From a virus (Duplodnaviria > Heunggongvirae > Uroviricota > Caudoviricetes): a stretch of 38,416 bases of DNA. The number at the start of each line of letters is the position of its first letter. The stretch's first letter is position 1. The stretch lies in IMG/VR virus record IMGVR_UViG_2609459840_000009, one strand, 5' to 3'. Positions 1-34,155 of this stretch are shown in pieces. The notes under the pieces were generated by a model. That model was not told where the DNA came from. It ran no database searches and saw nothing but the letters and a program-made list of their open reading frames with translations. Both the position numbers and the translations under genes were made by a program.

Positions 1-1053
1 TTACGGGGTAATGCCAACCGCTGCCGCCACTTTGTCGCCACTTGGCAGCGTTGCCAGAGGATTGAAACGGAGCGCCGTTTCCAGATGATCCGGTGCCAGA
101 TGTGCGTAACGCATAGTCATTTTTATATCGTGGTGTCCGAGAATTTTTTGTAAGGCCAGAATGTTTCCACCCGACATCATGAAGTGCGCTGCAAACGTAT
201 GGCGCAGAACGTGTGTGAGTTGACCGCGAGGGAGCACGATAGACGTTTTTTCCATCACGGATAAAAATTGAAAATAGCAGTCTGTGAAGAAATTGAACCC
301 ATCGAGCGCCATGATCTCTTCGTAAAGCTCTTTACTGATAGGGATGCTTCTGTTTTTCTTCCCCTTCGTTCTGACAAAGGTAATTCGGTATTTGGTCACC
401 TGTGAGCGGGTAAGATTTACGGCTTCACGCCAGCGTGCGCCTGTGCTTAAGCATATCTTAACTACCAGTGCCAGAATTGGGTCCTGACGTTTGCAATCAG
501 CCAGCAATTCAACAATCTGCTCATGGGTAAGCCATGCCATCTCTTTTTCTGCGATGGTGAATTTTCGCATGTTCTCCAGTGGGTTCGGATACGACCATTC
601 GCCCAGACGGGATAGTTCGCTAAAAACACTACTTAGATAGCTTTGCTCCAGGTTAATGGTGACCGGGCTTGCTCCTTTCTTCCATTTCTCGCTGAAGTAG
701 ATCTCGCCTGTCAGGCGTTTATCTCGATAGTGGGCAAACATTTTAGAGGTTAGATCAGTTGCAAGGGGATTGCCCAGAGCGTCAACCATCAGCAGCAATT
801 TGTCATAGACATGCTGCCCAGCAGTCAGTGATTTACCATGTAGTTTGAACCATAGCTCAACCACGTCTTTCAGTGTTCGACGATCCACTGATTCACCTAG
901 CCAGGGCTTTGCTTCGGTTTCTTCCATCGTGTGACGCTCAAAAGCCAGAGCTTCGCCTTTGGTGGCGAATTGTTTACGCACACGACGTCCACTACGTCCG
1001 GCGGGATAACATTCGCACAGCCATTTTCCTGTGGTGAGTTTTCGTACTGCCAT
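1..1053 (-). CDS. int: phage integrase, tyrosine recombinase (P2/186 Int family)
   Basis: 350 aa ORF with ATG start at 1051-1053 (minus strand) and stop at 1-3. C-terminal HxxR...Y catalytic signature (LRHTFAAHF ... MRYAHL). Position at the prophage end matches P2 organisation. Confidence 0.93.
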   Translation of the reverse strand: MAVRKLTTGKWLCECYPAGRSGRRVRKQFATKGEALAFERHTMEETEAKPWLGESVDRRTLKDVVELWFKLHGKSLTAGQHVYDKLLLMVDALGNPLATDLTSKMFAHYRDKRLTGEIYFSEKWKKGASPVTINLEQSYLSSVFSELSRLGEWSYPNPLENMRKFTIAEKEMAWLTHEQIVELLADCKRQDPILALVVKICLSTGARWREAVNLTRSQVTKYRITFVRTKGKKNRSIPISKELYEEIMALDGFNFFTDCYFQFLSVMEKTSIVLPRGQLTHVLRHTFAAHFMMSGGNILALQKILGHHDIKMTMRYAHLAPDHLETALRFNPLATLPSGDKVAAAVGITP

Positions 1054-1136
1054 AAAAAAGCCCTCATATCAGAGGGCTAAATTTAACTGTATATACAACC
1101 AGTAATCAATGTGTGATTGCTATGAAACATACATTG

Positions 1137-2813
1137 CTAAGCAACATGTAGTTCATCGTTGGCGGAAGTGGCTGCTTTGCGTTCCTGCTCAATAGCTAGT
1201 GACTCTCTATATTCTTTCGCCTCTGCAAACATTGTCCAGTGGGCATTGATGTTCATATCTTCAATAACCGATTTAATTTCTTTAATATTTACGTTAAAAA
1301 ACTCTTTTCGTGAGTTAATTTTATTGACCTGCTTTTCGTTGAAGACTTTATGCAGATGATTTTCTAATGACGGTGCATCATCACTATAAATCATCGCATG
1401 AACATCGAACGAAAAAGGAACACTAGCATCCCCAAGTTCACGAACACGATCAAGTGGTTCAAGGCGGCGTGTCATTCCAATTTTATATACATCTTCGCCA
1501 AATGAGCCAATATTGCTAATTATATAAACATGGCCTGATCTAGTTTGTTGAGCCATAGAAATAGCTCGTTGGTTTTTAGCTTCAGCTTCTTCATATTTTA
1601 ACTGTAGTTCAGCTATTTTTTGCTCTAAAGCTAAGCGTTGTTCTTCATTTGCAAGCATAAGCTCTTTCGTCGCTTTATTTATAGCTTGCTGAATAGCTTT
1701 CTCTTCTTTTTCGGCTTCTTTTATCGCTTTTTCATACTCTCTACGAGCTCTTTCCTCTTCACGAAGCTGTTCTTTAATCCTTCTTTGCTCCTCTTTTTCT
1801 TCGAGCATAATTTCATTAACTGCAACTCCCCATTTTAGCTCGTTGAGTCGTGCCTGAAGATAGATGTCACTTATTTTTGCGGATTTAAAAGCAGAGCCAT
1901 TATAATTTACAAGTTGAAATGCATCTTTTATTTCTTGGGAAAGTTTTCCAAAATTGTTGTGTTTGACTTTTGATAAAATACTGTCAACTCTTCCATTGAA
2001 GGCATCCAAAACAAAGTTGATAGCAGTATTACGCCTGTTTTGCTCAACATAATCACACGAAGCTGCTTTATTAGTTTTTATTAATGATTTTGTTAACTCC
2101 CTGGCTTTTTGTAATTCCTTGCCTGCATCTGTAAACTCATAATTTTCTGCCAATTCATCAAGTACACTACGGTTAGGGATGATCCATTCATCGCCATAAC
2201 CTTCAATTTTATTTTTCATTGATTTAGCAACTGCTTCATATTTTTCTGCAAACTCTTTAGCTTCATATGCTGAACCAGCAATCTCTTTTGCTCTTTCTTC
2301 TGCATCGGAAATAATTTTTACTGCGTTGTCATTAGCATTTGAGATCAGCTCATTTGCTTTACTGTTGGCATTATCAAGACGTTCTTTGGCTTTCAGGCGT
2401 GCATCGCGAGCGTCTTTGGTGATTGCTATAGCTTCGCTATTAGCGTTGCTTATTGTTATCTGAGCTTGATAATTTGCTTCGTTTACTGTCTTAGCAGCCT
2501 TTATTTGGGCTTCTTCTATTTTTTGCCTGGCTATTGAGTCTGCATTTTTTATCTTATTCTCTGCTTCCATCACTGCGCTGTGCAATTCTACGTATTGCCA
2601 TAATGGTGCAGCTCGTCCTTCAAGCTCTGATAGATCTCGTACAGTCTGTGCTAATTCTTCTTGATTTTCTTTCAGTTGGCTGGAAAGAGCTATGTTGTTA
2701 GCCGTCAGGTTATCTATGGCGGTTTTGTGTTCTTTACTTTTCTTAAATAATATTATAGCTAGAACAGGGGCGAGAAATGCTAATAATAATATAACGATGG
2801 AAAATGAATTCAT
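1137..2813 (-). CDS. cargo protein: N-terminal transmembrane anchor, long coiled-coil, C-terminal T5orf172/GIY-YIG-like domain (predicted nuclease or DNA-binding)
   Basis: 558 aa ORF with ATG at 2811-2813 and an AAGGA RBS. Hydrophobic N-terminus (FSIVILLLAFLAPVLAIILF), then Ala/Lys/Glu-rich heptad-like sequence. C-terminal motif GHVYIISN...YKIGMTRR...R...E resembles the T5orf172/GIY-YIG superfamily from memory. Visibly AT-rich compared with neighbouring phage genes. Confidence 0.7.
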   Translation of the reverse strand: MNSFSIVILLLAFLAPVLAIILFKKSKEHKTAIDNLTANNIALSSQLKENQEELAQTVRDLSELEGRAAPLWQYVELHSAVMEAENKIKNADSIARQKIEEAQIKAAKTVNEANYQAQITISNANSEAIAITKDARDARLKAKERLDNANSKANELISNANDNAVKIISDAEERAKEIAGSAYEAKEFAEKYEAVAKSMKNKIEGYGDEWIIPNRSVLDELAENYEFTDAGKELQKARELTKSLIKTNKAASCDYVEQNRRNTAINFVLDAFNGRVDSILSKVKHNNFGKLSQEIKDAFQLVNYNGSAFKSAKISDIYLQARLNELKWGVAVNEIMLEEKEEQRRIKEQLREEERARREYEKAIKEAEKEEKAIQQAINKATKELMLANEEQRLALEQKIAELQLKYEEAEAKNQRAISMAQQTRSGHVYIISNIGSFGEDVYKIGMTRRLEPLDRVRELGDASVPFSFDVHAMIYSDDAPSLENHLHKVFNEKQVNKINSRKEFFNVNIKEIKSVIEDMNINAHWTMFAEAKEYRESLAIEQERKAATSANDELHVA

Positions 2814-2833
2814 TTTTAAATCCTTTTACTATA

Positions 2834-3430
2834 TCAATTTGAAACTATTGTACTTCTTATACAAGCAACCACTTCAATATCAGAAAATGCACATTCAAAG
2901 CTATTCTCTGTAGTTGTAATTTTAATCATACCTTTTGGAAGCTTTGTGATTTTTCGAATGGAATAGGTTCCGTCGATGTTGATTAACCAGTGCCCATCAA
3001 GTACTTCAGAAAATTTTTGATCACAAATGTATGTGACAAGCCCATCCAGAATAACAATTGGTGATGAAAGATTTGCAGGAAGAAATGATGAATCGAAGAC
3101 ATATGAACCATCTTCAATCATTTTGCCTGCGGTAAGGCGAAACTTGGGAAGCTCTTCTGTGGCTACTGTCAGCGAGCTTTGCTTAAGTCCTTGCCCGGTG
3201 GTTAACCATTTCAGTGAGGTTCCTGTTTCAAGAGCACATTGGATTATCCAGTCTGCAGGAAACGTATCCCGCAAATACCTGTTCGCCAGAGTGCTTTTTG
3301 ATACTTCCAAGTGATCAGCTAAAGCCTGTCGTGTCGTAAAGCCATAAGCTTCGACTAATCGCTCAATCGCAGCCTTACCACCTTTATTGGGATTTATTTT
3401 GATCTCACTTGGGTACTTTGATGTTGACAT
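2834..3430 (-). CDS. cI: 186-type CI immunity repressor (HTH DNA-binding)
   Basis: 198 aa ORF with ATG at 3428-3430. N-terminal HTH-like segment (TTRQALADHLEVSKSTLANRY). Divergent from the early operon, as for the repressor of 186-like phages. Confidence 0.8.
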   Translation of the reverse strand: MSTSKYPSEIKINPNKGGKAAIERLVEAYGFTTRQALADHLEVSKSTLANRYLRDTFPADWIIQCALETGTSLKWLTTGQGLKQSSLTVATEELPKFRLTAGKMIEDGSYVFDSSFLPANLSSPIVILDGLVTYICDQKFSEVLDGHWLINIDGTYSIRKITKLPKGMIKITTTENSFECAFSDIEVVACIRSTIVSN

Positions 3431-3525
3431 ATCTCTTTTGCGATCCTAGTATCAGTTTTGTCCCCATTTGGGTACTTGTCACGATTACTACAGGCTCACC
3501 ACAAGCCAATAGGAGATGTTGCATC
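3431..3525. promoter_or_regulatory. divergent lysogenic/lytic promoter-operator region between cI and the early operon
   Basis: 95 bp intergenic region between divergently transcribed cI and the Cox/Apl-like gene; positional inference only, no operator motif resolved. Confidence 0.4.
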
Positions 3526-3747
3526 ATGACCCCTAACATTTCAATAACTCTGAATACGCCACATGTCACAATTGAGCGTTATAGCGAACTTACTGGTCTT
3601 TCAATCGACACAATTAACGATATGCTGGCTGACGGTCGCATCCCTCGGCATCGCCTTCGGAAAGACAAGAAAAGAGAAAAGGTGATGATCAACCTTGCTG
3701 CTCTTACCGTTGATGCACTTACTGATTGCAATGTTGTATTCAACTAG
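3526..3747 (+). CDS. Cox/Apl-like small HTH regulator (excisionase / lysogenic-promoter repressor candidate)
   Basis: 73 aa from ATG 3526 within the 112 aa ORF. First gene of the early operon opposite cI; small basic protein with HTH-like segment ([23 protein letters not shown]). Confidence 0.6.
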
Positions 3748-3779
3748 TTCCATTTTGGGATACATCAGGGGTGTCGACC

Positions 3780-4289
3780 ATGTTTGATTACCAAGTTTCC
3801 AAACATCCACATTTTGATGAAGCCTGTCGTGCATTCGCACTGCGCCACAACCTGGTGCAACTGGCAGAACGTGCAGGCATGAATGTGCAGATTCTGCGGA
3901 ACAAGCTGAACCCAGCTCAACCTCATTTATTAACCGCACCAGATATCTGGCTACTTACCGATCTGACTGAAGATTCAACGCTGGTAGACGGTTTTCTGGC
4001 ACAGATTCATTGTCTGCCATGTGTACCGATTAATGAGGTGGCAAAAGAGAAACTGCCACATTACGTCATGAGTGCAACCGCAGAGATCGGGCGTGTTGCT
4101 GCAGGTGCGGTATCTGGCGATGTAAAAACCAGTGCAGGTCGTCGTGATGCTATCAGCAGCATTAACTCTGTAACACGACTGATGGCGTTGGCTGCTGTTT
4201 CATTGCAGGCCCGTTTACAGGCTAACCCTGCGATGGCGAGTGCAGTTGATACCGTGACTGGCCTCGGTGCTTCATTCGGTTTGCTGTGA
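3780..4289 (+). CDS. cII: phage CII-like regulatory protein
   Basis: 169 aa from ATG 3780. Position directly after the Cox/Apl-like gene and the size match 186 CII; family assignment from memory, not from alignment. Confidence 0.6.
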
Positions 4290-4296
4290 GGTACTT

Positions 4297-4593
4297 ATGC
4301 TGACGAAAGAACCATCATTTGCATCGCTGCTGGTAAAGCAAAGCCCGGCAATGCACTACGGTCACGGCTGGATCATGGGTGAGGATGGAAAACGCTGGCA
4401 TCCATGTCATTCACAAGATGAATTGCTGTCTGAATTGACCACGAGGAAACGGAGAAAGTCAAAATGTATGCAGCGGAAAGTGAAGTGGTTTATCAGTTTC
4501 GTTACAGAGGGGAGAGTTATTCAGTACCTGAAGATGATTTGCTCTGTTGTTATCCGTCGTTGTCGGGCGATGGCAGTTACTTTTTCACGCTAA
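4297..4593 (+). CDS. small early protein, possibly Fil-like; 3' extent uncertain
   Basis: ATG at 4297 preceded by GAGG. The frame stays open to 4593 but overlaps the next gene by about 130 nt, and the C-terminal translation looks low-complexity and out of character. Confidence 0.35.
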   Translation: MLTKEPSFASLLVKQSPAMHYGHGWIMGEDGKRWHPCHSQDELLSELTTRKRRKSKCMQRKVKWFISFVTEGRVIQYLKMICSVVIRRCRAMAVTFSR

Positions 4594-5580: not shown

Positions 5581-6434
5581 GCACCATCCTGAAATGGGCG
5601 GGAAATAAAACCGCAATTATGTCCGAACTGAAAAAACACCTTCCTGCTGGCCCGCGACTGGTTGAACCTTTCGCGGGTTCCTGTGCTGTGATGATGGCGA
5701 CGGATTATCCAAGCTATCTGGTTGCGGATATTAATCCTGATTTAATCAACCTCTATAAAAAGGTTGCCGCTGATTGTGAATCGTTTATATCTCGCGCCAG
5801 AGTTTTATTTAAGGAAGCAAACAGGGAGGTGGCTTATTACAACATAAGGCAGGAGTTTAATTACTCAACTGAAATTACTGATTTCATGAAAGCGGTATAT
5901 TTCCTGTATCTCAATCGTCACGGTTACCGTGGTTTATGTCGCTATAACAAGAGCGGGCATTTCAACATTCCGTACGGTAATTATAAAAATCCGTATTTCC
6001 CTGAAAAAGAAATTCGCGCATTTGCAGAGAAAGCCCAGCGGGCAACGTTTATCTGCGCAAGCTTTGATGAAACGCTGGCGATGCTGCAGGTGGGGGATGT
6101 GGTGTATTGCGATCCGCCGTATGACGGTACGTTTTCCGGCTATCACACTGATGGTTTCACTGAAGATGACCAGTATCACCTGGCATCCGTTCTTGAACAT
6201 CGGTCATCAGAAGGACATCCGGTCATTGTTTCTAACAGTGACACATCCCTGATCCGTTCGCTATATCGCAATTTTACTCACCACTACATCAAGGCAAAAC
6301 GCAGCATCGGTGTGGCAGCTGGTGAGAGTAAATCTGCAACAGAAATCATCGCTGTTTCCGGGCCGCGCTGCTGGGTGGGATTTGATCCTTCGCGTGGCGT
6401 AGATAGTTCTGCCGTGTACGGAGTGCGTGCATGA
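5577..6434 (+). CDS. DNA adenine methyltransferase (Dam-like, N6-adenine)
   Basis: ATG 5577 overlapping the upstream stop. N-terminal SAM-binding motif (KWAGNK...EPFAGSCAV) and catalytic DPPY motif ([11 protein letters not shown]). Confidence 0.85.
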
Positions 6435-8845
6435 GCCATGCTGATATGAACAACTGCAGCGGCTTTAACGAGGTCGCCGCAGCATTCTCATGGAACAGCC
6501 CGAAAAAGGCTATTAACCCTTATCTGGACCCGGCGGAAGTTGCGCCGGTTTCTGCGCTTTCAAACCTGATCACTCTGTACGCTGCCGATAACGAGCAGGA
6601 ACAGCTGCGCCGTGAGGCGCTGAGTGATCAGGTCTGGGAGCGTTATTTCTTTAATGAATCCCGTGATCCTGTCCAGCGCGAAATGGAACAGGATAAGCTC
6701 ATTAGTCGGGCAAAGCTGGCGCATGAGCAGCAGCGTTTTAATCCGGATATGGTCATTCTGGCGGACGTCAACGCCCAGCCTTCCCATATCAGCAAGCCGC
6801 TGATGCAACGTATTGAATACTTCAGCAGCCTGGGCAGGCCAAAGGCTTATTCCCGCTATTTGCGTGAGACGATTAAGCCATGTCTGGAACGACTGGAGCA
6901 TGTACGCGACAGTCAGCTATCCACTTCTTTTCGCTTTATGGCAAGCCATGAAGGGCTGGACGGTCTGCTGATCCTGCCTGAAATGAGTCAGGATCAGGTG
7001 AAACGCCTGTCCACCCTGGTAGCTGCGCATATGAGCATGTGCCTTGATGCCGCTTGTGGCGATTTGTATGCCACCGATGACGTTAAGCCAGAAGAAATCC
7101 GCAAGACATGGGAAAAGGTGGCGGCGGAAACCCTGCGACTGGATGTCATACCGCCTGCGTTTGAGCAACTCCGCCGGAAAAGAAACCGCCGTAAACCCGT
7201 GCCCTATGAACTCATTCCGGGGTCGCTGGCGCGTATGCTGTGCGCCGACTGGTGGTATCGGAAATTGTGGAAGATGCGTTGCGAATGGCGGGAAGAGCAG
7301 TTGCGTGCTGTTTGCCTGGTCAGCAAAAAAGCATCTCCCTATGTCAGCTATGAAGCCGTGATGCATAAACGTGAGCAGCGCCGTAAGTCGCTGGAGTTTT
7401 TCCGTTCTCATGAACTGGTGAACGAAGACGGCGACACGCTGGACATGGAGGATGTGGTAAACGCCAGCAGCAGCAACCCTGCGCATCGCCGCAATGAGAT
7501 GATGGCCTGTGTTAAAGGTCTGGAGCTTATCGCGGAAATGCGCGGTGACTGCGCCGTTTTCTACACCATCACCTGTCCGTCACGTTTCCATTCCACGCTA
7601 AATAACGGCAGGCCCAACCCGACCTGGACAAATGCGACGGTAAGACAAAGCAGTGATTATCTGGTCGGCATGTTTGCTGCATTTCGTAAGGCGATGCACA
7701 AAGCCGGGTTGCGCTGGTATGGCGTGCGGGTGGCTGAGCCGCATCATGACGGCACAGTTCACTGGCACCTGTTGTGTTTCATGCGCAAAAAAGACCGCCG
7801 CGCCATTACTGCATTGTTGCGTAAGTTTGCTATCCGTGAAGACCGCGAGGAGCTGGGTAATAACACGGGGCCACGCTTTAAGTCTGAGCTGATAAACCCG
7901 CGCAAAGGAACGCCGACTAGCTACATCGCGAAATACATCAGTAAGAACATTGACGGGCGTGGTCTGGCTGGCGAGATCAGCAAGGAAACGGGTAAATCTC
8001 TGCGTGATAACGCTGAATACGTTAATGCCTGGGCGTCTCTGCATCGTGTTCAGCAATTCCGCTTCTTTGGCATTCCGGGGCGTCAGGCTTACCGTGAACT
8101 GCGATTGCTGGCTGGTCAGGCGGCAAGGCAACAGGGTGACAAAAAAGCAGGTGCGCCGGTACTGGATAACCCGCGCCTTGATGCCATTCTGGCTGCAGCT
8201 GATGCTGGTTGTTTTGCCACCTACATCATGAAGCAGGGCGGCGTACTGGTTCCCCGTAAATATCACCTCATCAGAACCGCTTATGAAATCAACGAAGAGC
8301 CGACCGCCTATGGCGATCACGGCATTCGTATTTATGGCATCTGGTCACCCATTACAGAGGGCAAAATCTGCACTCATGCCGTGAAGTGGAAAATGGTTCG
8401 TAAGGCCGTTGACGTTCAGGAGGCGGCAGCCGACCAGGGCGCTTGCGCCCCTTGGACTCGTGGCAATAACTGTCCCCTTGCTGAAAATTTGAACCAGCAG
8501 GAGAAAGATAAATCAGCTGATGGGGACACCAGAACGGACATTACCTGCATGGATGACAAGGAGTTGCACGATTATCTGCACAGTATGAGCAAAAAAGATC
8601 GCCGGGAACTGGCAGCAAGGTTACGCCTGGTGAAACCGAAACGGCGTAAAGACTACAAACAGCGAATTACAGACCATCAGCGACAGCAGCTTGTCTATGA
8701 ACTGAAGTCCAGAGGATTTGATGGCAGCGAGAAAGAGGTCGAGTTGCTCCTTCGCGGTGGCAGTGTTCCGTCAGGAGCAGGCCTGCGTATCTTCTATCGG
8801 AACCAGCGTCTGCAGGAGGATGATAAATGGCGGAACATGTATTAA
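6431..8845 (+). CDS. A: replication initiation endonuclease (P2 gpA family, rolling-circle)
   Basis: 804 aa ORF with ATG 6431 overlapping the Dam stop. Contains an HxH-type motif (HWHLLCF) and a tyrosine motif ([12 protein letters not shown]) typical of rolling-circle initiators. Confidence 0.9.
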
Positions 8846-8937
8846 TTACGCTGATTAACAATTCGTGCTCTTAATAATACCAGGCATATCAGGCTGATGA
8901 ACGTAAAAAAACGTTTTACATCAGTAAGATTATTATA

Positions 8938-8957
8938 TACTGTAAATATAAACAGTG
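8938..8957. promoter_or_regulatory. LexA (SOS) box overlapping a promoter-like region
   Basis: TACTGTAAATATAAACAGTG matches the CTGT-N8-ACAG LexA consensus (CTGT 8940-8943, ACAG 8952-8955). Lies about 40 bp upstream of the next ORF; TTTACA and TATTAT-like hexamers are adjacent. Confidence 0.6.
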
Positions 8958-8998
8958 GTTATGCATACAGTATTGCTTGTGGTGTCATAGGAGGAAAA

Positions 8999-9187
8999 AT
9001 GCAGGACTATTTTTTGGAGTCTTTGAAGCTCCAGCGCATTGATTTTTTTCTTAAGCTTGTAGCGGCTAGTGAGTGTAGTGATGAAGAGAAGGGGCTGGCT
9101 TTGCAGTGGGTTTCTGAACTAACAGATGAACTCATGGCAAAAATCAGAACCCACGAATACAACCGCTCAATGGATGTCATCAGTTGA
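8999..9187 (+). CDS. small hypothetical protein downstream of the LexA box (antirepressor candidate, Tum-like by position only)
   Basis: 62 aa from ATG 8999 with GGAGGA RBS at about 8989-8994. Confidence 0.4.
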   Translation: MQDYFLESLKLQRIDFFLKLVAASECSDEEKGLALQWVSELTDELMAKIRTHEYNRSMDVIS

Positions 9188-9197
9188 GGTGACTTTT

Positions 9198-9431
9198 ATG
9201 CGCATTGAAATAATGATCGATAAAGAGCAGAAGATTAGCCAGTCTATCCTGGACGCCCTTGAATCCGAGCTTTACCGCAATCTGCGCCCCCTGTATCCAA
9301 AAACGGTAATTCGTATCCGCAAAGGTAGCTCTAACGGTGTGGAACTGACCGGACTGCAACTGGACGAAGAAAGAAAACAAGTGATGAAAATTATGCAGAA
9401 GGTGTGGGAAGACGACAGCTGGCTGCATTAG
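9198..9431 (+). CDS. DinI-like protein
   Basis: 77 aa from ATG 9198 with GAGGTG RBS. MRIEIMIDK...LRPLYP...VIRIRKGSSNGVELTGLQLDEERKQVMKIMQKVWEDDSW resembles DinI (short, acidic C-terminal WxxDDxW). In 186 the LexA-controlled tum product carries a DinI-like part. Confidence 0.75.
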   Translation: MRIEIMIDKEQKISQSILDALESELYRNLRPLYPKTVIRIRKGSSNGVELTGLQLDEERKQVMKIMQKVWEDDSWLH

Positions 9432-9559
9432 AGAACGTTGCGGATGATAAAACTAGCTTTTACCATCTGCAAGGCTGAACAACGATTGTAGCGAGGTGTT
9501 AGGTGGTTCAAAAGTAAAGCGGTTATTTTGTCCGTAAAAGTGAACCACCTGTATCTTGA

Positions 9560-10300
9560 TCAGTTTTCTTTGAATTTTTCACTTAATCGTTTCGTCAATA
9601 CTTCGACAGATTCTTTGCGACCGGAGAACAAGTCATTGACGACGTACTCCATAATCTCAAAAGCATCCTCAATGTCTTTGACTTTTACTTCATCGTAGGT
9701 ATGGCTTCCGGCATTTCCTAAAAATTTAATTGCCATAAGAGGTCTTGAAAACGATCCGTATAATTCAGGTAGCATCCCTAAACGGTGGTGTAGAGTTATG
9801 CGTTTGCCATTATCATTACGTTCAGCTACATCCATAGCAGTTAGCATTCTTTCAACTGAAATTCGAATTAGGTTTGCTGCTGCGCCAGGCTGTATTAGGA
9901 AAATGGAAAATGAGGCTTCAAGCGGTTCGGTAATTTCTTTTGGGCATTTTTCAGGTATTTCGAAAGGATGCAGTGATGGGTAAAAGGTGAAAGGTCTATA
10001 CCATTGATAGTACTCAATATCATTTCTTTCTTCATCCCAACCTTGTTCCCATCCACTCTTACCAGTACAGGCCACAACTTCACCACATTGCATTCTTGAA
10101 CAGCGGGCCATGCAACTGAAAATAGATGAATCCATTTCTAGTTCAAACCAATCTTCACTGCGGAATTTTCGGGTATCATGTGTGTCATACGAGACGAAAC
10201 TTTCTTTAATGATCTGTAGGGTTTTCTGATTGCAGTTAGGGCAGGGCCACTCAACCTGCATATCGTGGAAAAACGCACCAGAGAGCTTGTGCACAGTCAT
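9560..10300 (-). CDS. cargo protein: N-terminal Cys-rich (zinc-ribbon-like) region, C-terminal DUF4145-like (possibly HEPN-like) region
   Basis: 246 aa ORF with ATG 10298-10300 and GAGGAA RBS. Cys cluster (CPNC ... CMARCSRMQCGEVVAC) and C-terminal motif IKFLGNAGSH reminiscent of DUF4145, from memory. AT-rich, in the P2 tin/old hotspot position. Confidence 0.6.
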   Translation of the reverse strand: MTVHKLSGAFFHDMQVEWPCPNCNQKTLQIIKESFVSYDTHDTRKFRSEDWFELEMDSSIFSCMARCSRMQCGEVVACTGKSGWEQGWDEERNDIEYYQWYRPFTFYPSLHPFEIPEKCPKEITEPLEASFSIFLIQPGAAANLIRISVERMLTAMDVAERNDNGKRITLHHRLGMLPELYGSFSRPLMAIKFLGNAGSHTYDEVKVKDIEDAFEIMEYVVNDLFSGRKESVEVLTKRLSEKFKEN

Positions 10301-10707
10301 TCTTTGTGTTCCTCATTTTTATGATTGGTAGGGATTGTATCTTCATACACGATTACAGTTGCATTAAAGATAAGCCATAGCAAGCTACTGGAAAAGAGAC
10401 GAAACAGTTGGGCATATCAGATGTTTTTTCTTAAGGTAAGTTGTTGTGCATGCCTATACTGCATGAGATTGCATGATCGTTTGAGGATCGTTATTGCTAA
10501 GGCCCACCAGAACTGGCGGGCTTTTGCGTAGATCATGCAGGTGCATGAAAACCACTACATAAAGCGGGCAGGCGTGGCGGGGATACGAGCGCGCGCTGTG
10601 CTGTGTGGTATAGGCCTTAATTTAGTATGATTCAATAGTGTCGGGAGCTTTGCGCTGATCAGTCCTAAGTTATATGATAAGAAAAATGCATAAAAAAGGT
10701 TCGGTTC

Positions 10708-11682
10708 ATGGGGTTAGGATTAAAAGACGCTATTGTGCATACCGCTGCGTTTCATCAAAAGGAAACTAATGAATTGCAATTGCCAAACAATCATTGGCAT
10801 CCTGGTTTTATCACTGTCTTAGCAGCTTACGTGAATCATCACAAAATTACCGAAGATAACTGTGTTTTGTCATGCCCGGGCTATATGCGAGCTATCAATT
10901 TACATGGTGCTTTATGGGGAGAGGATCAGTATCAACAGGAACGTGTAAATGTTGGAAGAAATTACAGTTTGGTTACAGCATTAACCAATGTTGAAGCTGT
11001 TGACGTTGCCACTGGTAGTATTAACAGTTGTGTAAGGCAGTTAACATTCCCTGATCGTGATCCGAGAGATTGTCCCAAGGGACTTACAGATCTAACCCAT
11101 GTTATAGGTGAGCTTCACGATAACGTTTGGTCGCATGGAAAATCAACGGGTTTTTCTTTTGCACAACGTTCGGCTGTACCCCACACTCAAAAAAAAGAGC
11201 ACTATTTAGAATTTTCTTTGGCGGACTGTGGGTTAGGATTTCTCCGAGAATTGCGGCGAGCTGGTATACCCGGAATTGAGACTCACCAGGATGCGATCGC
11301 ATGGTGTATTCAAGAGGGACATTCATCTAAGCATGCTGATTTGCAGGATGATTGGGCACAGCAGCTTCCCCAGGACTTTATTGGGGGTAGTGTGTTTGGC
11401 CACGGGGTTTCGGTCAAAGAAAAAGATAATAATCATCAAGGGCTTGGGTTGTATCACTTGATGAAATTGATAAAAACATATAATGGGGAATTGCAACTGG
11501 CTTCAGGAAATGTATGCTTAGAAGCAATAGGTGATGAAGTGAGCTATACTGAATTACGTACTGAATGGCCGGGTGTAGCAATTTCTTGCCGTTTTAAGAT
11601 TCATGAACTGGCAGTCGATAAAGATAGCGAAGAAAATGACCCTCAGCTTATGGAAATAATGCGGGCGTTAGGAGGAGAGTAA
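10708..11682 (+). CDS. cargo protein: GHKL/Bergerat-fold ATPase (histidine-kinase-like ATPase, RsbW/anti-sigma-kinase-like) with an unassigned N-terminal region
   Basis: 324 aa ORF with ATG 10708. N-box-like ELHDNVWSHG, G1-box-like DCGLGF and G2-box-like GLGLYHL are visible in the translation. AT-rich. Confidence 0.75.
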   Translation: MGLGLKDAIVHTAAFHQKETNELQLPNNHWHPGFITVLAAYVNHHKITEDNCVLSCPGYMRAINLHGALWGEDQYQQERVNVGRNYSLVTALTNVEAVDVATGSINSCVRQLTFPDRDPRDCPKGLTDLTHVIGELHDNVWSHGKSTGFSFAQRSAVPHTQKKEHYLEFSLADCGLGFLRELRRAGIPGIETHQDAIAWCIQEGHSSKHADLQDDWAQQLPQDFIGGSVFGHGVSVKEKDNNHQGLGLYHLMKLIKTYNGELQLASGNVCLEAIGDEVSYTELRTEWPGVAISCRFKIHELAVDKDSEENDPQLMEIMRALGGE

Positions 11683-12020
11683 TGAACAAAATCGCATACA
11701 AGTTACCCGAGGGTGACCTGGCTTCGCGCAATCAGGCTATCCCCCAACGACACAAGATTGAAGGGTTCATTAAAGAAGGGTATACCGTAGATTTAGATCT
11801 GAGCGGTGTTTATTCAATTTCAGAATCATACTCTGATGAAATCTTTGGTGTTTTGGTAGTGAAATTCGGTGTAACCAAAGTTTTGAGTCAAGTTAAGGTT
11901 CGCAATGCACCCCCTTCAATTTTAAAAAGTATTGCAAAAGTGATCCAACGCCGTAGTAATGAAGTAGCATCAAAAAAGGTTCATTCCGTTGGATTTGATG
12001 GTTTATACGCCGTTTGTTAA
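11682..12020 (+). CDS. cargo protein: small STAS-like (DUF4325-like) protein, putative partner of the GHKL ATPase
   Basis: 112 aa from ATG 11682 overlapping the upstream stop (TAATG), with strong GGAGGAGA RBS. Motif VDLDLSGVYSISESYSDEIFGVL resembles DUF4325/STAS-like proteins, from memory. Confidence 0.65.
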   Translation: MNKIAYKLPEGDLASRNQAIPQRHKIEGFIKEGYTVDLDLSGVYSISESYSDEIFGVLVVKFGVTKVLSQVKVRNAPPSILKSIAKVIQRRSNEVASKKVHSVGFDGLYAVC

Positions 12021-12041
12021 TATATGGTTAGTTAGATAAAA

Positions 12042-12068
12042 GGCGCTGAGATTAGCGCCTTTTCTTTT
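12042..12068. terminator. candidate bidirectional rho-independent terminator between the convergent cargo operon and portal gene
   Basis: GGCGCT-gagatt-AGCGCC hairpin at 12042-12059 followed by TTTTCTTTT, with an A-run upstream. Confidence 0.5.
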
Positions 12069-13104
12069 ATTCCTGAACACCTAAAACATAGTCATCAAAA
12101 CGTATTACTTCTGCACCCACCCATTCGTTTAGTTCATGTAGTCGCTTCTGTAGTGGCATCAATTCATTGCGAACAAATACAAGACTAGCCTTCTCCACAT
12201 CCCCAAAACCCCCAACATTATTTGGCATAATCCCCATCATCTGTGGCGGAACGCGATGTGCTGCCATCATGTCATCGCGGCTGACATTTTTGATATTCAG
12301 AAACTCATCCTTCGCCGCAACTTCTGACAAAGGGATGATCTGAAGGCCGTCCTTTTTGCCGTTAGGCGAGTACATAAACAGGTTGCGGAAGTTGCCTGGA
12401 CCTTTGGCGCTTTTCATCGCGTTGCGGAGATTGTTCACATCCTCCTGATTCTGCGCGGCGTCGGTCATGTACATGATGAAGCCTGCATGGCTGCCGTTGA
12501 TGTAATACTTACGGCGGAACAGCGTGGCGGACTCATTGAGCAGGGCTGACGGAATGGCAGAAAGATAGCCGGGCAGGCCGTAGATCTCCTGGTTAATGTC
12601 CGGTTCCATCAGATGAAAGATGCTGCCTTTCGTGAACTGATACGGCTGTGTTGTCATACCGTATTGCACAAACCAGTAGGTTTCTAGGTCTAACCCGCGT
12701 CGGGTGTATTTTGCCAGGGCCGGTTCAAGGGCGATAACTTCACCGAAGCGGTTCGTGCGTTTCTCCAGGTAGGCGTTACCAAATACCAGATAGTCCTGCA
12801 CAAAACGTGAAAAAGCCTGCTGGCTGAGCAGCGGGTGAGGGATGTAGGTACTGGTCAGAATGTTGCACTTTACTGCAATCGGGGAACTGTGATGCACAGC
12901 AGCGCGGAAGGTGCGCGCCAGTCCGTCAAAGCTGACAGGAGGCTCATACCAGCGATCTGTCTGTACGCATTCCACATAGTCCAGCAGTTCGCGGCGGTCA
13001 AGTACTGGAATGGGATCACCGAAGCTGAATGCTTCGGCTGTAGTCTGGCTTTTAAGCTGGCTCTGTTTCGTCGCCGCAGCGCGGTTCTTCTTACTCTTTC
13101 CCAT
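12067..13104 (-). CDS. Q: portal protein (P2 gpQ family)
   Basis: 345 aa from ATG 13102-13104 (the ORF track adds an upstream TTG codon). Convergent with the cargo island and downstream of P, as in P2. Confidence 0.92.
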   Translation of the reverse strand: MGKSKKNRAAATKQSQLKSQTTAEAFSFGDPIPVLDRRELLDYVECVQTDRWYEPPVSFDGLARTFRAAVHHSSPIAVKCNILTSTYIPHPLLSQQAFSRFVQDYLVFGNAYLEKRTNRFGEVIALEPALAKYTRRGLDLETYWFVQYGMTTQPYQFTKGSIFHLMEPDINQEIYGLPGYLSAIPSALLNESATLFRRKYYINGSHAGFIMYMTDAAQNQEDVNNLRNAMKSAKGPGNFRNLFMYSPNGKKDGLQIIPLSEVAAKDEFLNIKNVSRDDMMAAHRVPPQMMGIMPNNVGGFGDVEKASLVFVRNELMPLQKRLHELNEWVGAEVIRFDDYVLGVQE

Positions 13105-14870
13105 CAAAAAATCTCCACAATATTGCTGGTATTGGCGGACTCGCCCTGCAGCGGTTCGTTAAAGAGTGCGTGCATTGTTGCCCAGGCCAGATCGGCATGG
13201 CTGGCTTCTTCGCTGCGGCTGGCTTCATAGGTCGGGCGGTTGCCGCTGGCGGTGGTGGCGCGACGGATTGCCATGAATGACTGCGCAATGTCGGTGTGTC
13301 CGGCGTCAAATTCTAGGCGGCGGTGACTGATAATGTCGTAGGCCTTGAGTACCAGGGCGTTTTTAACGTTGGGGTTGTAGACAAACTCCCGGACGGCAGG
13401 AAAGAATGCTTTCACGTTCTCATAAACCCCGTGGCCGACGCCAGTTGAGTCGATGCCGATGTATGTCACGTTGTACTGTTCGGTCAGTTTTTTGATGGCG
13501 TCAGCCTGGGCGCGGAAGTCCATCCCGCGCCACTGGTGACGCTCAAGAATGCGGAACTTACCGCCCGGCACGGCTGGCGGTGCCACCACTACGCATCCGG
13601 CGCTGTCGCCGTTTTGCGTACCTTTTGCCGGGTCATAACCGATCCACACTTCGCGCCAGCCAAAGGGGCGCAGAGCCAGTGCATGAAAGTCGGTCCAGAC
13701 TTCCCAGCTGTCTACCATGCACGCCTGCAGCTCGCTGAGCGGGAACACGGACGCGAGATCGTCCACGAACTCGCACATCAGCAGGTTCTGGTATTCGTCC
13801 GGGCTGTACTCCATGCGCAACTGGTCAAGGTCGAACAGGTTACAGCCGCCGCGCACCGCATCTTCCACGGTGACTATCTGGCGGTATTGCCCGTCTGCGC
13901 ACAGCAGGCCGGGGGCCAGATTGCTGTGGGACAGGTCGATGTCCACCTTATCGGCTTTGTTGCGCCCACGGTTGAACAGCGCACCGGACCAGAACGGATA
14001 AGCACTGTGTGTCAGACTGGATGGCGTGGAAAAATAGGTTTGTCGCCATTTTTTGTGAATAGCCATACCGGAAGCCACTTTGCGCAGCTCCTGGAATTTC
14101 GGTATCCAGAAATATTCATCCAGATACAGGTTGCCGTGGTAACTCTGGGCCGTGCGGGCATTGGTGCCGAGGAAGTAAAGCGTGGCCCCGTTAGGAAGCA
14201 CCATCGGATCGCCTTTCAGCTCCACCTCCACTTCTTTGGCAAAGTCGATGATGTACTGTTTAAAGACGTGGGCCTGAGCCTTGCTGGCAGAAAGGAAAAT
14301 CTGGTTACGCCCGGTCAGCAGGGCGTCAATCAGGGCTTCACGGGCAAAGTAAAAGGTCGCGCCGATCTGGCGTGACTTCAGCAGGTTGCGGATGCGGTTG
14401 GTTTTTCCAGCTTCCCACCAGTGGCGCTGGTAGTTGAACATAGAGGAATGGAAGATTTCTTCCAGCTTCTCAATCTGTTCATCGGTGAAAACATTCTTTT
14501 CCGGCTGACGGCGCGGGCCTTTGTTGCGGTTGGCGACGTTTGGGTTTAAGTCGGCTTCGTTGCCGCCATTGTTAAACTTGCCGATCCGCGCGTGGCGTTC
14601 CGACTGGCGCGCCAGCAGGTCAATCTCTTTGAAATCTTTCCCTTCTTTGTGCTCCTTCATAATGAGCTGGCAGTAGCGTGCGGCGGTGGTGAGCTGCATC
14701 TGATCCAGTGGCCCATAGTCACCCCACTTGTCGCGTTTTTTCCAGCTGTGAACGGTTGCAACTTTCTCGCCCAGCATTTCAGCAATGCGGGCTACGCGGT
14801 ATCCCTGAAAGTACAGCAGCATGGCCTGCCGACGGGGATCGAGATCTGCGGGTGTCAGTGTGGTGTTCAT
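13104..14870 (-). CDS. P: terminase large (ATPase) subunit (P2 gpP family)
   Basis: 588 aa with ATG 14868-14870; its stop overlaps the Q start. Size and position match P2 gpP. Confidence 0.92.
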   Translation of the reverse strand: MNTTLTPADLDPRRQAMLLYFQGYRVARIAEMLGEKVATVHSWKKRDKWGDYGPLDQMQLTTAARYCQLIMKEHKEGKDFKEIDLLARQSERHARIGKFNNGGNEADLNPNVANRNKGPRRQPEKNVFTDEQIEKLEEIFHSSMFNYQRHWWEAGKTNRIRNLLKSRQIGATFYFAREALIDALLTGRNQIFLSASKAQAHVFKQYIIDFAKEVEVELKGDPMVLPNGATLYFLGTNARTAQSYHGNLYLDEYFWIPKFQELRKVASGMAIHKKWRQTYFSTPSSLTHSAYPFWSGALFNRGRNKADKVDIDLSHSNLAPGLLCADGQYRQIVTVEDAVRGGCNLFDLDQLRMEYSPDEYQNLLMCEFVDDLASVFPLSELQACMVDSWEVWTDFHALALRPFGWREVWIGYDPAKGTQNGDSAGCVVVAPPAVPGGKFRILERHQWRGMDFRAQADAIKKLTEQYNVTYIGIDSTGVGHGVYENVKAFFPAVREFVYNPNVKNALVLKAYDIISHRRLEFDAGHTDIAQSFMAIRRATTASGNRPTYEASRSEEASHADLAWATMHALFNEPLQGESANTSNIVEIF

Positions 14871-20866: not shown

Positions 20867-22156
20867 TCAATTGGTAAAAATTCTACTCTGCTCACCATAG
20901 CTGTCCTTTGCTTCGTTAATCAGATCCTCCCATGGCCATTTTATGGTTACATATTTTCGATAAATTAAAATGGTTCTGTCGATAGCAGTGACCTCATCAG
21001 TTGCATCATTGTAGGAAAGAACTAACCCTCTATCGTCACTATCAACCTGTAACTCTTCAATTTTTTGAAGTACAGTTCGCAGATTCCCTTTTAATATTCG
21101 ACTTTGTCTTCTTGACGCAATTTTAAAAATGGTATCTAACTCTAATCCTTGAATGAGTTCTTTATCGGATGAGTCCATTATTACAGCCATGGCATGAGCA
21201 TAAATGCCAGTGGTTTCTGTTCTTTTACGTATTCCTGATGATATATCTTTAGCAAATTTTTGATATCGAGAATTTAATTGTTCAGCATATTTCATGGCTG
21301 CATCAACGAATTTTTCTTGATCATCTAACATCGTTAATGTTGTACATTCCTCATCAATTCCTGTCTCGTCAAGAATGTTTAAGGCTAGTTGTTGTAAAAT
21401 CCCAACATTACCATAGCAATCATCAAGGATGCATCTCTTTATATGATCTGAGAACTTAACTTTTAAAGTTTCTGATCCACTTATTATTACTTGTTCAAGA
21501 TCGGCTCTAGACCATGATATGGGAATTTCTTCTATGCGAGAACCAAGGTCAGAATTTAAATAAATTAGTAGGTTTGTTTTTGTCCAAACACCAATGATTA
21601 CGAAAAAACAACCATAATCCCAAAGCGCCTTTAAGTCATAAGCAAATATTTGTCGTTCACGAGTGTTTAAGTAGTGAAAATCTTCAATAACTACTTTTCT
21701 TCCTGCTTCGTTAATTATTTCTGCAATAAATCTCAAATCATTAATATCTTGACCAACATTTCCTTTTTTTATTACCTCCTCTTCAGAAGTCTCAAGTCCA
21801 AATTTAACCTTTAGTTTTGCTATAAGACCAATGCCTCCTGCAGCAGAGCCCTCCATTACGCCTTTAATTGTATCTTTTTCGGTTCTCTCTAGCACAAGGC
21901 TTATACCTAATTGAGATAGAATATCTATATATATATCTAAAACGGTTGTCTTTAATCTGCATTGTACAACAATAGCATTAGGTATGTTCTTTTGTCTTAA
22001 CCATGACTTACCACATTTGGATTCCCCTCTTAAGGCGAGATGTATTGGTCGGCGTAATTTTCTACTGATTTCCTTATCAAGATTTCCTCTGTCTACATAT
22101 GAATCAGCAAGAATCGTTGGTGAAATACCAAAAACTTCGTGTGTTTGTTTCTTCAT
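20867..22156 (-). CDS. cargo protein: orphan P-loop NTPase (AAA+/ORC-like ATPase candidate), antisense to the late operon
   Basis: 429 aa from ATG 22154-22156 with GAGG RBS (the ORF track starts at an upstream TTG). Walker A GESKCGKS and Walker B-like VVIEDF. Visibly AT-rich; inserted between S and V where P2 has only an intergenic promoter. Confidence 0.7.
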   Translation of the reverse strand: MKKQTHEVFGISPTILADSYVDRGNLDKEISRKLRRPIHLALRGESKCGKSWLRQKNIPNAIVVQCRLKTTVLDIYIDILSQLGISLVLERTEKDTIKGVMEGSAAGGIGLIAKLKVKFGLETSEEEVIKKGNVGQDINDLRFIAEIINEAGRKVVIEDFHYLNTRERQIFAYDLKALWDYGCFFVIIGVWTKTNLLIYLNSDLGSRIEEIPISWSRADLEQVIISGSETLKVKFSDHIKRCILDDCYGNVGILQQLALNILDETGIDEECTTLTMLDDQEKFVDAAMKYAEQLNSRYQKFAKDISSGIRKRTETTGIYAHAMAVIMDSSDKELIQGLELDTIFKIASRRQSRILKGNLRTVLQKIEELQVDSDDRGLVLSYNDATDEVTAIDRTILIYRKYVTIKWPWEDLINEAKDSYGEQSRIFTN

Positions 22157-22176
22157 GATGGCCTCACTATCCGTTT

Positions 22177-22194
22177 TGTACTGTTTATCACACA
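22177..22194. promoter_or_regulatory. Ogr-type late-promoter activator site (TGT-N12-ACA dyad) upstream of V
   Basis: TGTACTGTTTATCACACA has TGT-N12-ACA, about 55 bp upstream of the V start codon and just upstream of the divergent cargo ATPase start. Confidence 0.4.
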
Positions 22195-22240
22195 AACAAT
22201 ACTAAAGGAAAGCCGCTTTCTTTTAATTAACTATATCCAT

Positions 22241-33673: not shown

Positions 33674-34155
33674 TGATGGTGCTGGGATTGTACGTGTTTA
33701 TGCTGCGCACCGTACCGTATCAGGAGCTGCAGTATCAACGCAGCTGGCGATATGCGGCAAACAGTCGGGTAAATCGTCGTCCGTCCACGCAGTTTCTGGG
33801 ACCGGACAACGACATGCTGACGCTTTCTGGTGTTCTTATGCCGGAGATAACAGGCGGCAGGCTGTCGTTGCTGGCACTGGAGCAGATGGCAGAACAGGGG
33901 AAAGCATGGCCCCTGATTGAAGGCAGCGGCACGATTTATGGCATGTATGTGATTGAGGGACTGAATCAGACTAAAACGGAGTTTTTCCGCGATGGTATGC
34001 CGCGCCGGATTGAGTTCACCCTGTCGCTCAAACGGGTGGATGAATCCCTGTCCGATATGTTCGGTGATCTCAGTGCGCAGCTGAATAATCTGCAGGACAC
34101 GGCAACGTCTGCATTAAGCGATATCAGTAAAACGGTGGGAGGGCTGCTGTCGTGA
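33670..34155 (+). CDS. U: tail protein (P2 gpU family)
   Basis: 161 aa; ATG overlaps the T stop. Confidence 0.88.
   Translation: MMMVLGLYVFMLRTVPYQELQYQRSWRYAANSRVNRRPSTQFLGPDNDMLTLSGVLMPEITGGRLSLLALEQMAEQGKAWPLIEGSGTIYGMYVIEGLNQTKTEFFRDGMPRRIEFTLSLKRVDESLSDMFGDLSAQLNNLQDTATSALSDISKTVGGLLS

Follow-up and report, generated by a model that had tools for sequence, protein, structure and literature searches.

At the left end of the window, the whole 38,416-nt stretch of viral DNA analyzed here, an ORF with an ATG start (positions 1137–2813, minus strand) encodes a 558-aa homolog of SNIPE/PD-λ-1. A tyrosine integrase gene (int; 1–1053, minus strand; Pfam Int_N and Phage_integrase) lies downstream of it and a 186-type cI repressor gene (2834–3430, minus strand; Pfam Phage_CI_repr and Phage_CI_C) immediately upstream, which agrees with the int–cI placement described in the original prediction. 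The cI stop codon is separated from the 558-aa gene by 20 nt, and this spacer holds a Shine-Dalgarno sequence read directly from the DNA (AAGGA; 2821–2825, minus strand), 7 nt upstream of the ATG. The strong AT-richness noted earlier was borne out by a GC content of 37.1% in the gene vs. 50.6% in the whole window, and by a GC3 of 27.5% vs. 49.9% in int. A minus-strand scan detected no promoter-like or terminator-like site between cI and the 558-aa gene, while the promoter scan yielded fewer promoter-like sites than shuffled sequence and none for the 558-aa gene itself. Given the 20-nt distance and the lack of any predicted signal in between, the gene is presumed to be transcribed from the cI transcript in the lysogen, as had been anticipated. 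A terminator-like hairpin with a T-run directly before the int ATG (1059–1078, minus strand; AGCCCTC-TGATAT-GAGGGCT-TTTTTT-ATG) occurs in all relatives, in two covarying stem versions, and belongs to the conserved int leader, marking the downstream end of the cargo.

Profile searches matched residues 103–550 of the protein to the PADLOC PD-Lambda-1 model PDLC03976 (model positions 33–481 of 491; E = 9e-120), and the protein also matched a second PADLOC model, PDLC03977 (E = 3.5e-116), and PHROG 1847 (E = 1.9e-132). In Pfam, T5orf172 (PF10544; residues 427–520, E = 1.1e-16) and MUG113 (PF13455; residues 443–520, E = 1.6e-19) both exceeded their curated cut-offs, which upholds the T5orf172/GIY-YIG-like C-terminal module recognized from the sequence beforehand, and the DUF4041 profile check proposed with it was positive (PF13250; residues 267–322, E = 3.1e-12, 46.6 bits vs. 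a cut-off of 27). A locus in strain JML285 with 99.9% identity is annotated in RefSeq as WP_001084071.1, "SNIPE associated domain-containing protein," and diverse relatives of the N-terminal region carried DUF4041 in 41 of 42 cases and T5orf172 in 33 of 42. For an ORF of 1.7 kb in AT-rich DNA, profile E-values as low as 1e-132 lie far beyond chance and, judged on these matches, the gene is a genuine, intact representative of the characterized SNIPE (PD-λ-1) family.

From its N-terminus, the protein comprises a predicted transmembrane signal-anchor (residues ~5–23; 2745–2801), a helical stalk or "adapter" that is its most divergent part (residues 24–204; 2202–2744), a globular helical DUF4041 ("SNIPE") domain (residues ~205–335; 1809–2201, with the Pfam core at 1848–2015), a helical linker rich in Glu (23.8%), Ala (13.9%), and Lys (11.9%) (residues 336–423; 1545–1808), and a T5orf172/MUG113 (GIY-YIG-type) nuclease domain (residues 424–525; 1239–1544), all on the minus strand. 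The anchor, proposed originally and retained here as a prediction, is the sole hydrophobic segment of the protein (Kyte-Doolittle 19-residue mean of 3.04) and is followed by KKSKEHK on the cytoplasmic side; by the positive-inside rule, its N-terminus is predicted to face out. In the AlphaFold2 model (mean pLDDT 77), a long helix at residues 2–179 is followed by one at 182–200, a compact helical DUF4041 domain at ~217–315 (pLDDT 85–92), linker helices at 316–425 (316–387 and 390–425), and a beta/alpha domain at 427–526, the nuclease domain, with elements in the order beta-beta-alpha-beta-alpha. The model therefore supports a helical stalk but not the ~350-aa coiled coil that had been described as one unit, as it divides that stretch into the long helix, the compact domain, and the linker. 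An AlphaFold2 run on an alignment of low depth (28 sequences with identities of 81% or more) was discarded (mean pLDDT 51, both globular domains below 50). PDB sequence searches with the 558-aa protein and with a nuclease-domain profile built from 21 sequences gave no meaningful match, the sole match, phage gpW, being a chance one (E = 0.99). Separately, the Pfam entry for DUF4041 now carries the label "SNIPE."

The 558-aa protein has the GIY-YIG motif residues in the order and spacing that are canonical for I-TevI and UvrC (Y430 of GIY, Y443 of YIG, R449/R450, E484, and N497, at spacings of 13, 6–7, 34, and 13), with VYIISN at residues 429–434 and YKIGMTRR at 443–450. Among 120 diverse homologs (46%–53% identical), Y430, R449, R450, E484, and N497 were invariant and Y443 was conserved in 81%. 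Mean identity to the same homologs was only 14%–16% over residues 1–140 and 59%–65% in DUF4041, and dN was ~0.18 in the N-terminal stalk vs. ~0.06 in the globular domains. Synonymous sites were saturated between genera, which precludes a proper dN/dS, so that only the dN values and the saturation were used; low dN with synonymous saturation across genera shows that the gene is under purifying selection.

SNIPE is PD-λ-1 of Escherichia coli ECOR26 (RCP76574.1, 500 aa; Vassallo et al. 2022, PMC9519451; Saxton et al., PMC13190303), discovered as a defense protein by functional selection (Vassallo et al. 2022, PMC9519451) and later described as a membrane-tethered nuclease that cuts phage DNA during injection and spares host DNA (Saxton et al., bioRxiv 10.1101/2025.11.03.685801 = Nature 2026, PMC13190303). 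Saxton et al. assayed one SNIPE homolog, the 500-aa protein, which provided direct, nuclease-dependent defense and not abortive infection, localized to the inner membrane with an N-out topology by PhoA-LacZα fusions, associated with ManYZ and siphovirus tape measure proteins, had a siphovirus range, and left an induced resident prophage unaffected (PMC13190303). When untethered (ΔTM), the tested protein was highly toxic and cut host DNA (PMC13190303). A single TM helix is found in the tested SNIPE and in 59% of homologs.

We represented RCP76574.1 by a 500-aa E. coli proxy, matched by length, E. coli origin, and nine published residue positions rather than by accession; the proxy carries the residue given in the SNIPE paper at each of the nine. 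The 558-aa protein resembles the tested SNIPE in being prophage-borne and in the order of its parts (TM anchor, helical stalk, DUF4041, helical linker, and T5orf172/GIY-YIG-type nuclease), with the tested TM helix at the same position as the predicted anchor. The two align collinearly, with 195 of 488 positions identical (~40%); DUF4041 (197–252) and T5orf172 (357–448) of PD-λ-1 recur in the 558-aa protein shifted by exactly 70 residues, and the catalytic Glu is kept, E414 aligning to the predicted catalytic E484 (codon at 1362–1364, minus strand). Identity to the tested allele is unevenly distributed, at 68.6% in the nuclease domain, 47.5% in the linker, 25% in DUF4041, and 28%–30% in the N-terminal region (28%, with 40 gap positions, in the stalk); the 58 residues by which the 558-aa allele is longer all precede DUF4041. 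In DUF4041 it is the 558-aa allele that lies near the family consensus, whereas the tested SNIPE is an outlier. Four substitutions in the tested SNIPE (E223K, W257R, K305N, and T319A) enhanced defense against Bas14 (PMC13190303), and the 558-aa allele has S292, K327, Q375, and N389, respectively, at these sites and Q320 at the crosslink position N250. The N-terminal region and DUF4041 are, by analogy with the tested protein, the parts implicated in target recognition. Because identity is so low in both, the ManYZ association, tape-measure contacts, and siphovirus-only range cannot be assumed for the 558-aa allele.

The genomic setting also differs. The 558-aa allele is found at the int–cI junction of an E. 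coli prophage of the P2/186-like myovirus type; the 500-aa proxy alleles examined belong to lambdoid prophages, in which they are located between the replication genes and the nin region. Because the 500-aa allele has unrelated neighbors there, with no conserved partner gene, and the 558-aa allele is adjoined by the phage core genes cI and int, both fit a single-gene system. The 558-aa gene and the cI C-terminal domain form a low-GC mosaic module (1117–3177), delimited by homology breakpoints and replaced in related prophages. Homology with three relatives (L005, L008, and L009) stops at window position 1116 and restarts at 3178–3189, and their cI proteins are 75%–78% identical in the HTH part vs. 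39%–40% in the C-terminal domain; with two others (L002 and L007), it stops at 1112–1136 and restarts at 3423–3480, save for a short stretch of 70%–74% identity within 3195–3384. At the same integration site and with the same int (90%–99% nucleotide identity), the junction instead holds a KAP NTPase, a 314-aa protein of unknown function, or only a 63-aa ORF, and Klebsiella phage 4LV2017 has a 349-aa unknown protein there, an alternative cargo in which PADLOC found nothing.

Full-length copies of the 558-aa gene were found in 165 complete E. coli genomes (3%) and the cI allele of this prophage in 163, compared with 1,112 genomes having an int match covering at least 80%; ~950 genomes with a closely related integrase lack the gene, which is thus not a conserved backbone gene. 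By its presence and absence, its replacement, and its atypical composition, it is prophage cargo (a "moron") at a variable hotspot, as the original prediction held. Klebsiella and Enterobacter prophages likewise have this cI followed by the gene after a gap of 20 nt, and the 558-aa-type allele is also present in Citrobacter and Salmonella. Its linkage to cI can be put down to the module they share. A cI–int cargo hotspot has been described in P2-related Vibrio phages (K139-like; Rousset et al. 2022, PMC9122126), which belong to another host family and phage lineage, and the published E. coli P2 hotspots are at the gpA-portal and Z/fun positions (PMC9519451). The old/tin and Z/fun sites of P2 are comparable cargo hotspots; unlike at the K139-like and P2 sites, the cargo here is co-inherited with a particular cI allele and does not assort freely.

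We consider the 558-aa gene to encode a single-gene anti-phage defense protein of the SNIPE (PD-λ-1) family, carried as cargo of a P2/186-like prophage, with a probability of roughly 85%. Computation yielded the ORF, anchor, domain order, catalytic residues, collinearity, operon position, cI linkage, and purifying selection, and by analogy we infer that the allele behaves as its 40%-identical tested homolog does, phage range included. The gene would be transcribed leftward with cI in the lysogen, and the N-terminal helix would anchor the protein in the inner membrane so that hardly any of it reaches the periplasm, leaving the helical stalk, DUF4041, and the GIY-YIG-type nuclease on the cytoplasmic side. 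When another phage injects its genome, DUF4041 may engage both the incoming DNA and the machinery that injects it (for siphoviruses, the tape measure protein), upon which the nuclease would cut the DNA during membrane crossing. Host and resident prophage DNA would escape cleavage owing to the tethering of the enzyme and its inactivity at other times. The phages recognized are probably set by the divergent N-terminal stalk together with the DUF4041 surface.

The original prediction had offered superinfection exclusion and abortive infection side by side, and family data on the tested homolog favor the former. In an abortive-infection scheme, infection would release or activate the nuclease against the host chromosome, killing the cell and protecting the population; the toxicity and host DNA cleavage of the ΔTM form lend this some plausibility, and the divergent N-terminal region and DUF4041 leave room for another activation mode, but the tested homolog acts by direct defense, cleaving phage DNA at injection with host DNA spared, and the 558-aa allele retains the anchor and the architecture in full, making such a scheme improbable. 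Slightly less probable again is a selfish or phage-housekeeping nuclease, either homing-endonuclease-like or engaged in prophage DNA transactions. T5orf172/GIY-YIG domains are indeed widespread in phage genomes, including as short stand-alone forms, and the gene sits between a repressor and an integrase, both DNA-transaction genes. However, its full-length match is a functionally selected defense protein, a membrane anchor is hard to square with homing or chromosomal recombination, sister prophages whose int and backbone are nearly identical either have no such gene or bear unrelated cargo, and one related copy is interrupted by ISVsa5 in an otherwise intact region.

That same ISVsa5 insertion, along with truncated cluster members, could point to an inactive relic of a SNIPE gene, yet the ORF considered here is intact with a good Shine-Dalgarno sequence, all catalytic-motif residues are kept, dN is low while synonymous sites are saturated between genera, and 165 E. 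coli genomes have full-length copies, so that we regard decay as very unlikely. Least credible of all, with hardly any probability left to it, is an SMC-like "chromosome segregation ATPase" or DivIVA-like structural coiled-coil protein, a reading that draws on the records of phages KP12 and vB_EcoM-813R9 ("chromosome segregation ATPase"), on the JGI label of relatives ("vacuolar-type H+-ATPase subunit H"), and on a weak NCBIfam DivIVA_Wag31 match. Pfam detects no ATPase domain in the 558-aa protein, which refutes the SMC reading at the level of domain content; both ATPase labels are artefacts of coiled-coil composition, as is the DivIVA_Wag31 match, at 24.4 bits vs. a cut-off of 260.

Returning to the SNIPE-family defense protein, the gene itself is not new, the family being already named, mechanistically characterized, and annotated in RefSeq; with the 558-aa gene already recognized by PADLOC, a standard defense finder, and by current RefSeq annotation, and with the family mechanism in print since 2026, it carries little weight as a discovery. 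What it represents is a second, abundant enterobacterial SNIPE allele, fixed beside one 186-type repressor in particular. Its differences from the tested protein fall precisely in the regions presumed to govern phage specificity. With a stalk that is 58 residues longer and unrelated and a DUF4041 only 25% identical, docking and recognition may differ, and we tentatively suggest, at somewhat less than even odds, that the 558-aa allele is a natural specificity variant that uses another inner-membrane entry complex than ManYZ, meets other injection machineries, and possibly acts on phages outside the range of the tested allele. As the tested protein lies farther from the family consensus, the 558-aa allele could likewise be the better model of how most SNIPE homologs work, and its near-perfect co-inheritance with one cI allele could exceed mere linkage. 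The allele would be a convenient natural partner for domain swaps addressing SNIPE injection-site recognition, and could be of use in predicting phage-therapy resistance of strains lysogenic for this prophage.

The discussion of the SNIPE paper points to the membrane-associated defenses Zorya and Kiwa and to superinfection-exclusion proteins such as HK97 gp15 as likewise working at the inner membrane while the genome is being injected (PMC13190303); we detected no sequence or domain relationship between these and the 558-aa protein, the likeness being one of functional analogy alone, and unlike SNIPE, Zorya and Kiwa are multi-component and HK97 gp15 is not a nuclease. Stand-alone T5orf172/GIY-YIG proteins of phages and prophages are related by sequence, as the PADLOC candidate PDC-S57 matched residues 424–546 of the 558-aa protein with E = 3.7e-20 and proteins of the phiP27 and ES18 gp19 type were 55%–60% identical over ~150 residues (tblastn), these matches being confined to query residues ~380–545, the C-terminal nuclease part.

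The gene between the integrase and repressor genes encodes a 558-aa homolog of the anti-phage protein SNIPE (1137–2813, minus strand; ATG start, preceded at 7 nt by an AAGGA Shine-Dalgarno sequence). It starts 20 nt past the stop codon of the upstream 186-type cI repressor gene (2834–3430) and is followed downstream by a tyrosine integrase gene (1–1053), both assigned by Pfam. Its GC content is 37.1% against 50.6% for the whole window, and its GC3 27.5% against 49.9% in int, so the AT-rich int–cI gene of the original prediction, made before database searches, was borne out. The protein matched the PADLOC model PD-Lambda-1 over nearly its full length (E = 9e-120) and PHROG 1847 (E = 1.9e-132). 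PD-λ-1 was identified in E. coli by functionally selecting anti-phage genes (PMC9519451) and was later characterised and renamed SNIPE (bioRxiv 10.1101/2025.11.03.685801, published as Nature 2026, PMC13190303). The window gene is a known, previously annotated member of this mechanistically characterised family: the protein is publicly available in exactly this sequence and falls in a 90%-identity cluster of 920 members, PF13250 (DUF4041) carries the label "SNIPE" in precomputed Pfam annotation of contigs, and a 99.9% identical locus in E. coli JML285 bears the RefSeq name "SNIPE associated domain-containing protein". The same gene is present in INPHARED in Klebsiella phage KP12 (OM835953.1, 98.4% protein identity) and Escherichia phage vB_EcoM-813R9 (ON470620.1, 96.8%). 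Both are labelled "chromosome segregation ATPase", a wrong annotation due to the coiled-coil stalk.

A single strongly hydrophobic segment at the N-terminus (residues ~5–23, Kyte-Doolittle 3.04), followed by KKSKEHK, is the predicted counterpart of the membrane anchor originally proposed. Above curated Pfam cut-offs, the protein matched both domains to which that proposal had pointed, DUF4041 (residues 267–322, E = 3.1e-12) and T5orf172 (PF10544, 427–520, E = 1.1e-16), as well as MUG113 (443–520, E = 1.6e-19); the motifs VYIISN and YKIGMTRR were located at residues 429–434 and 443–450. In an AlphaFold2 model built on a 138-sequence deep alignment (mean pLDDT 77.3; a shallow-alignment model was discarded as unusable), a very long helix including the anchor (2–179) precedes a compact helical domain (~217–315, pLDDT 85–92), linker helices (316–425), and a beta/alpha domain (427–526). 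This corrects the first description in one respect, as the middle of the protein does not form a single ~350-aa coiled coil.

Across 120 diverse homologs, no variation occurs at Y430, R449, R450, E484, or N497, and Y443 is 81% conserved; these residues are spaced as in GIY-YIG nucleases. PDB sequence and profile searches for the protein and its nuclease domain returned no meaningful match, and the putative GIY-YIG assignment is based on Pfam family matches, the conserved motif residues, and what has been published on a 69%-identical domain. Exhaustive search with residues 1–266 as the sole query yielded 324 cluster representatives. In a sample of 42 proteins that look full-length (comprising the window protein, a 500-aa proxy for the tested SNIPE, and 40 matches to residues 1–266), DUF4041 was found in 41, T5orf172/MUG113 in 33, and a hydrophobic segment at the start of most; the domain architecture of the window protein is canonical for the family.

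The tested SNIPE, from E. coli ECOR26 (RCP76574.1, 500 aa), is placed in the inner membrane by a single N-terminal transmembrane helix, N-terminus out, and is an associate of ManYZ (PMC13190303). Its DUF4041 promotes DNA binding and also contacts siphovirus tape measure proteins, and defence needs the GIY-YIG nuclease, since E414A abolishes it (PMC13190303). It cleaves λ DNA during injection and not afterwards, has no effect on an induced resident prophage, and defends directly rather than abortively, while the protein lacking its anchor is toxic because host DNA is then cut (PMC13190303).

We consider it probable (roughly 0.85) that the window allele, an abundant one, is a functional SNIPE. 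Anchored in the lysogen's inner membrane, it would cleave the DNA of superinfecting phages during entry, and its particular stalk and DUF4041 surface would determine its phage range; by analogy with the tested protein, the resident prophage would be unharmed on induction. The original interpretation is supported, as the anti-phage role is upheld by the defence family match, but its abortive option is unlikely to apply to this gene product, the tested homolog acting directly. It is very unlikely that the nuclease serves some purpose other than defence, and we give yet less credence to an inactive SNIPE relic. An SMC/DivIVA-type protein, as labelled in some records, is scarcely conceivable, since these labels fail on domain content.

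As a proxy for RCP76574.1, we used a 500-aa DUF4041 protein of E. coli lambdoid prophages, picked by nine published residues, all of which (E414, E223, W257, L253, E264, K305, I308, T319, and N250) it has at the positions given in the SNIPE paper. The window protein and this proxy are collinear, with 195 identities over 488 positions, and E484 aligns with E414; Pfam domain positions are offset by exactly 70 residues from those of tested PD-λ-1. Identity to the proxy is 68.6% in the nuclease domain, 47.5% in the linker, 28%–30% in the N-terminal region (with ~50 gap positions), 25.5% in DUF4041, and 16% in the segment before DUF4041. Compared with the 120 homologs, which are 46%–53% identical to it overall, the window protein has 59%–65% identity in DUF4041 and 69% in the nuclease, and only 14%–16% in the first 140 residues. 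The window allele is therefore typical of the family, and it is the tested protein that stands apart in DUF4041, its domain being far from the family consensus, unlike that of the window allele. Between genera, dN is ~0.06 in the globular domains and ~0.18 in the stalk, with synonymous sites saturated, which indicates strong purifying selection on the globular domains and a faster-changing stalk. The 500-aa tested-type allele lies at 5805–7307 (minus strand) in two lambdoid prophage loci (L003 and L004), between replication genes (P, ren) and the nin region, and in one of them adjoins an HD-domain protein.

The window comprises a complete P2/186-like prophage and the host genes ybjL (Asp-Al_Ex/TrkA_C transporter, 35797–37482, minus strand) and ybjM (37752–38129, plus strand). 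As the right end (35797–38129) is host DNA, the prophage ends between gpD (34152–35252) and 35797; in matching complete genomes, the integration site is beside rcdA. The SNIPE homolog is prophage cargo: only 165 complete E. coli genomes have it, as against 1112 with an integrase match of 80% coverage or more. That the int–repressor junction holds cargo, as predicted, was confirmed in related prophages: PG20180057 (L005) has a 443-aa KAP-family NTPase (5633–6964, minus strand) and a 60-aa ORF, 08-00022 (L007) a 314-aa hypothetical protein (5645–6589, minus strand) and a longer cI, Klebsiella phage 4LV2017 (L002) a 349-aa hypothetical protein (1851–2900, minus strand) with no PADLOC match, and NC22 and M7424 only a 63-aa ORF. 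By position, the KAP NTPase and the 314-aa and 349-aa proteins are candidate defence genes. A repressor–integrase cargo hotspot has been described in P2-related Vibrio phages (PMC9122126), so this type of site is also known. In E. coli DETEC-S560 (NZ_CP116094.1; L006, 5636–8450), ISVsa5 (IS4-like) lies inside the SNIPE homolog at about codon 29 (window ~2724–2729), just past the transmembrane anchor, and what remains is annotated as a 543-aa ORF that lacks the anchor. Because expression of an untethered SNIPE is toxic, the disrupted copy is presumably silent.

Homology breakpoints fall at 1112–1136 on the int side and, on the other, either within cI, separating the HTH domain from the C-terminal domain (3178–3189), or past cI (3423–3480); thus, the exchanged unit comprises the gene and the C-terminal half of cI or more. 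Relative to cI of three prophages without the gene (L005, L008, and L009), the HTH domain (residues 1–84) is 75%–78% identical and the C-terminal domain only 39%–40%. Given this mosaic boundary near 3178, the SNIPE gene therefore moves together with one particular version of the cI C-terminal domain. This cI allele and the gene practically always occur together (163 and 165 genomes, respectively, and the whole block in 164). Klebsiella and Enterobacter prophages in different chromosomal contexts have identical spacing, with cI (198 aa), a 20-nt gap, the gene (558 aa), an 82-nt gap, and int; their genes are 83%–84% and their cI C-terminal domains 77%–78% identical to those of the window.

Scanning of the minus strand showed no promoter-like or terminator-like site separating cI from the gene, and given this 20-nt spacer without predicted signals, the simplest reading is that both are co-transcribed in the lysogen. 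Downstream of the gene, a hairpin with a T-run (1059–1078, minus strand) runs into the int ATG, its 3' arm containing the GAGGG Shine-Dalgarno sequence of int. It is kept in all relatives (L002, L005, L007–L010, and L013) in two covarying stem versions, GCCCTC/GAGGGC and GCTCTCC/GGAGGGC, that preserve pairing. The hairpin belongs to the int leader, not the cargo, and could act by transcription attenuation or by masking int translation in the lysogen.

Elsewhere in the prophage, another AT-rich island (GC 0.336), at the P2 Z/fun-type cargo position and flanked by tail and baseplate genes, encodes a 442-aa ORF (20867–22195, minus strand) that has no Pfam domain and matches the PADLOC candidate system PDC-S59 (E = 1.9e-197). 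This insertion is absent from JML285, whose int-to-cII block (window 1–4300) is 99.9% identical to that of the window. The classical P2 old/tin hotspot (8845–12067), between gpA (replication endonuclease, 6431–8845) and the portal gene (12067–13107), holds a DinI-like gene (9126–9431, plus strand), a DUF4145 protein with weak PD-T7-4 similarity (9560–10300, minus strand; 2.9e-5), a 324-aa protein with no Pfam match (10708–11682, plus strand), and a DUF4325/STAS-like protein (11682–12020, plus strand). The stop of the 324-aa gene overlaps the start of the DUF4325/STAS-like gene, and the two are possibly a two-gene cassette; JML285 carries different cargo at this hotspot.
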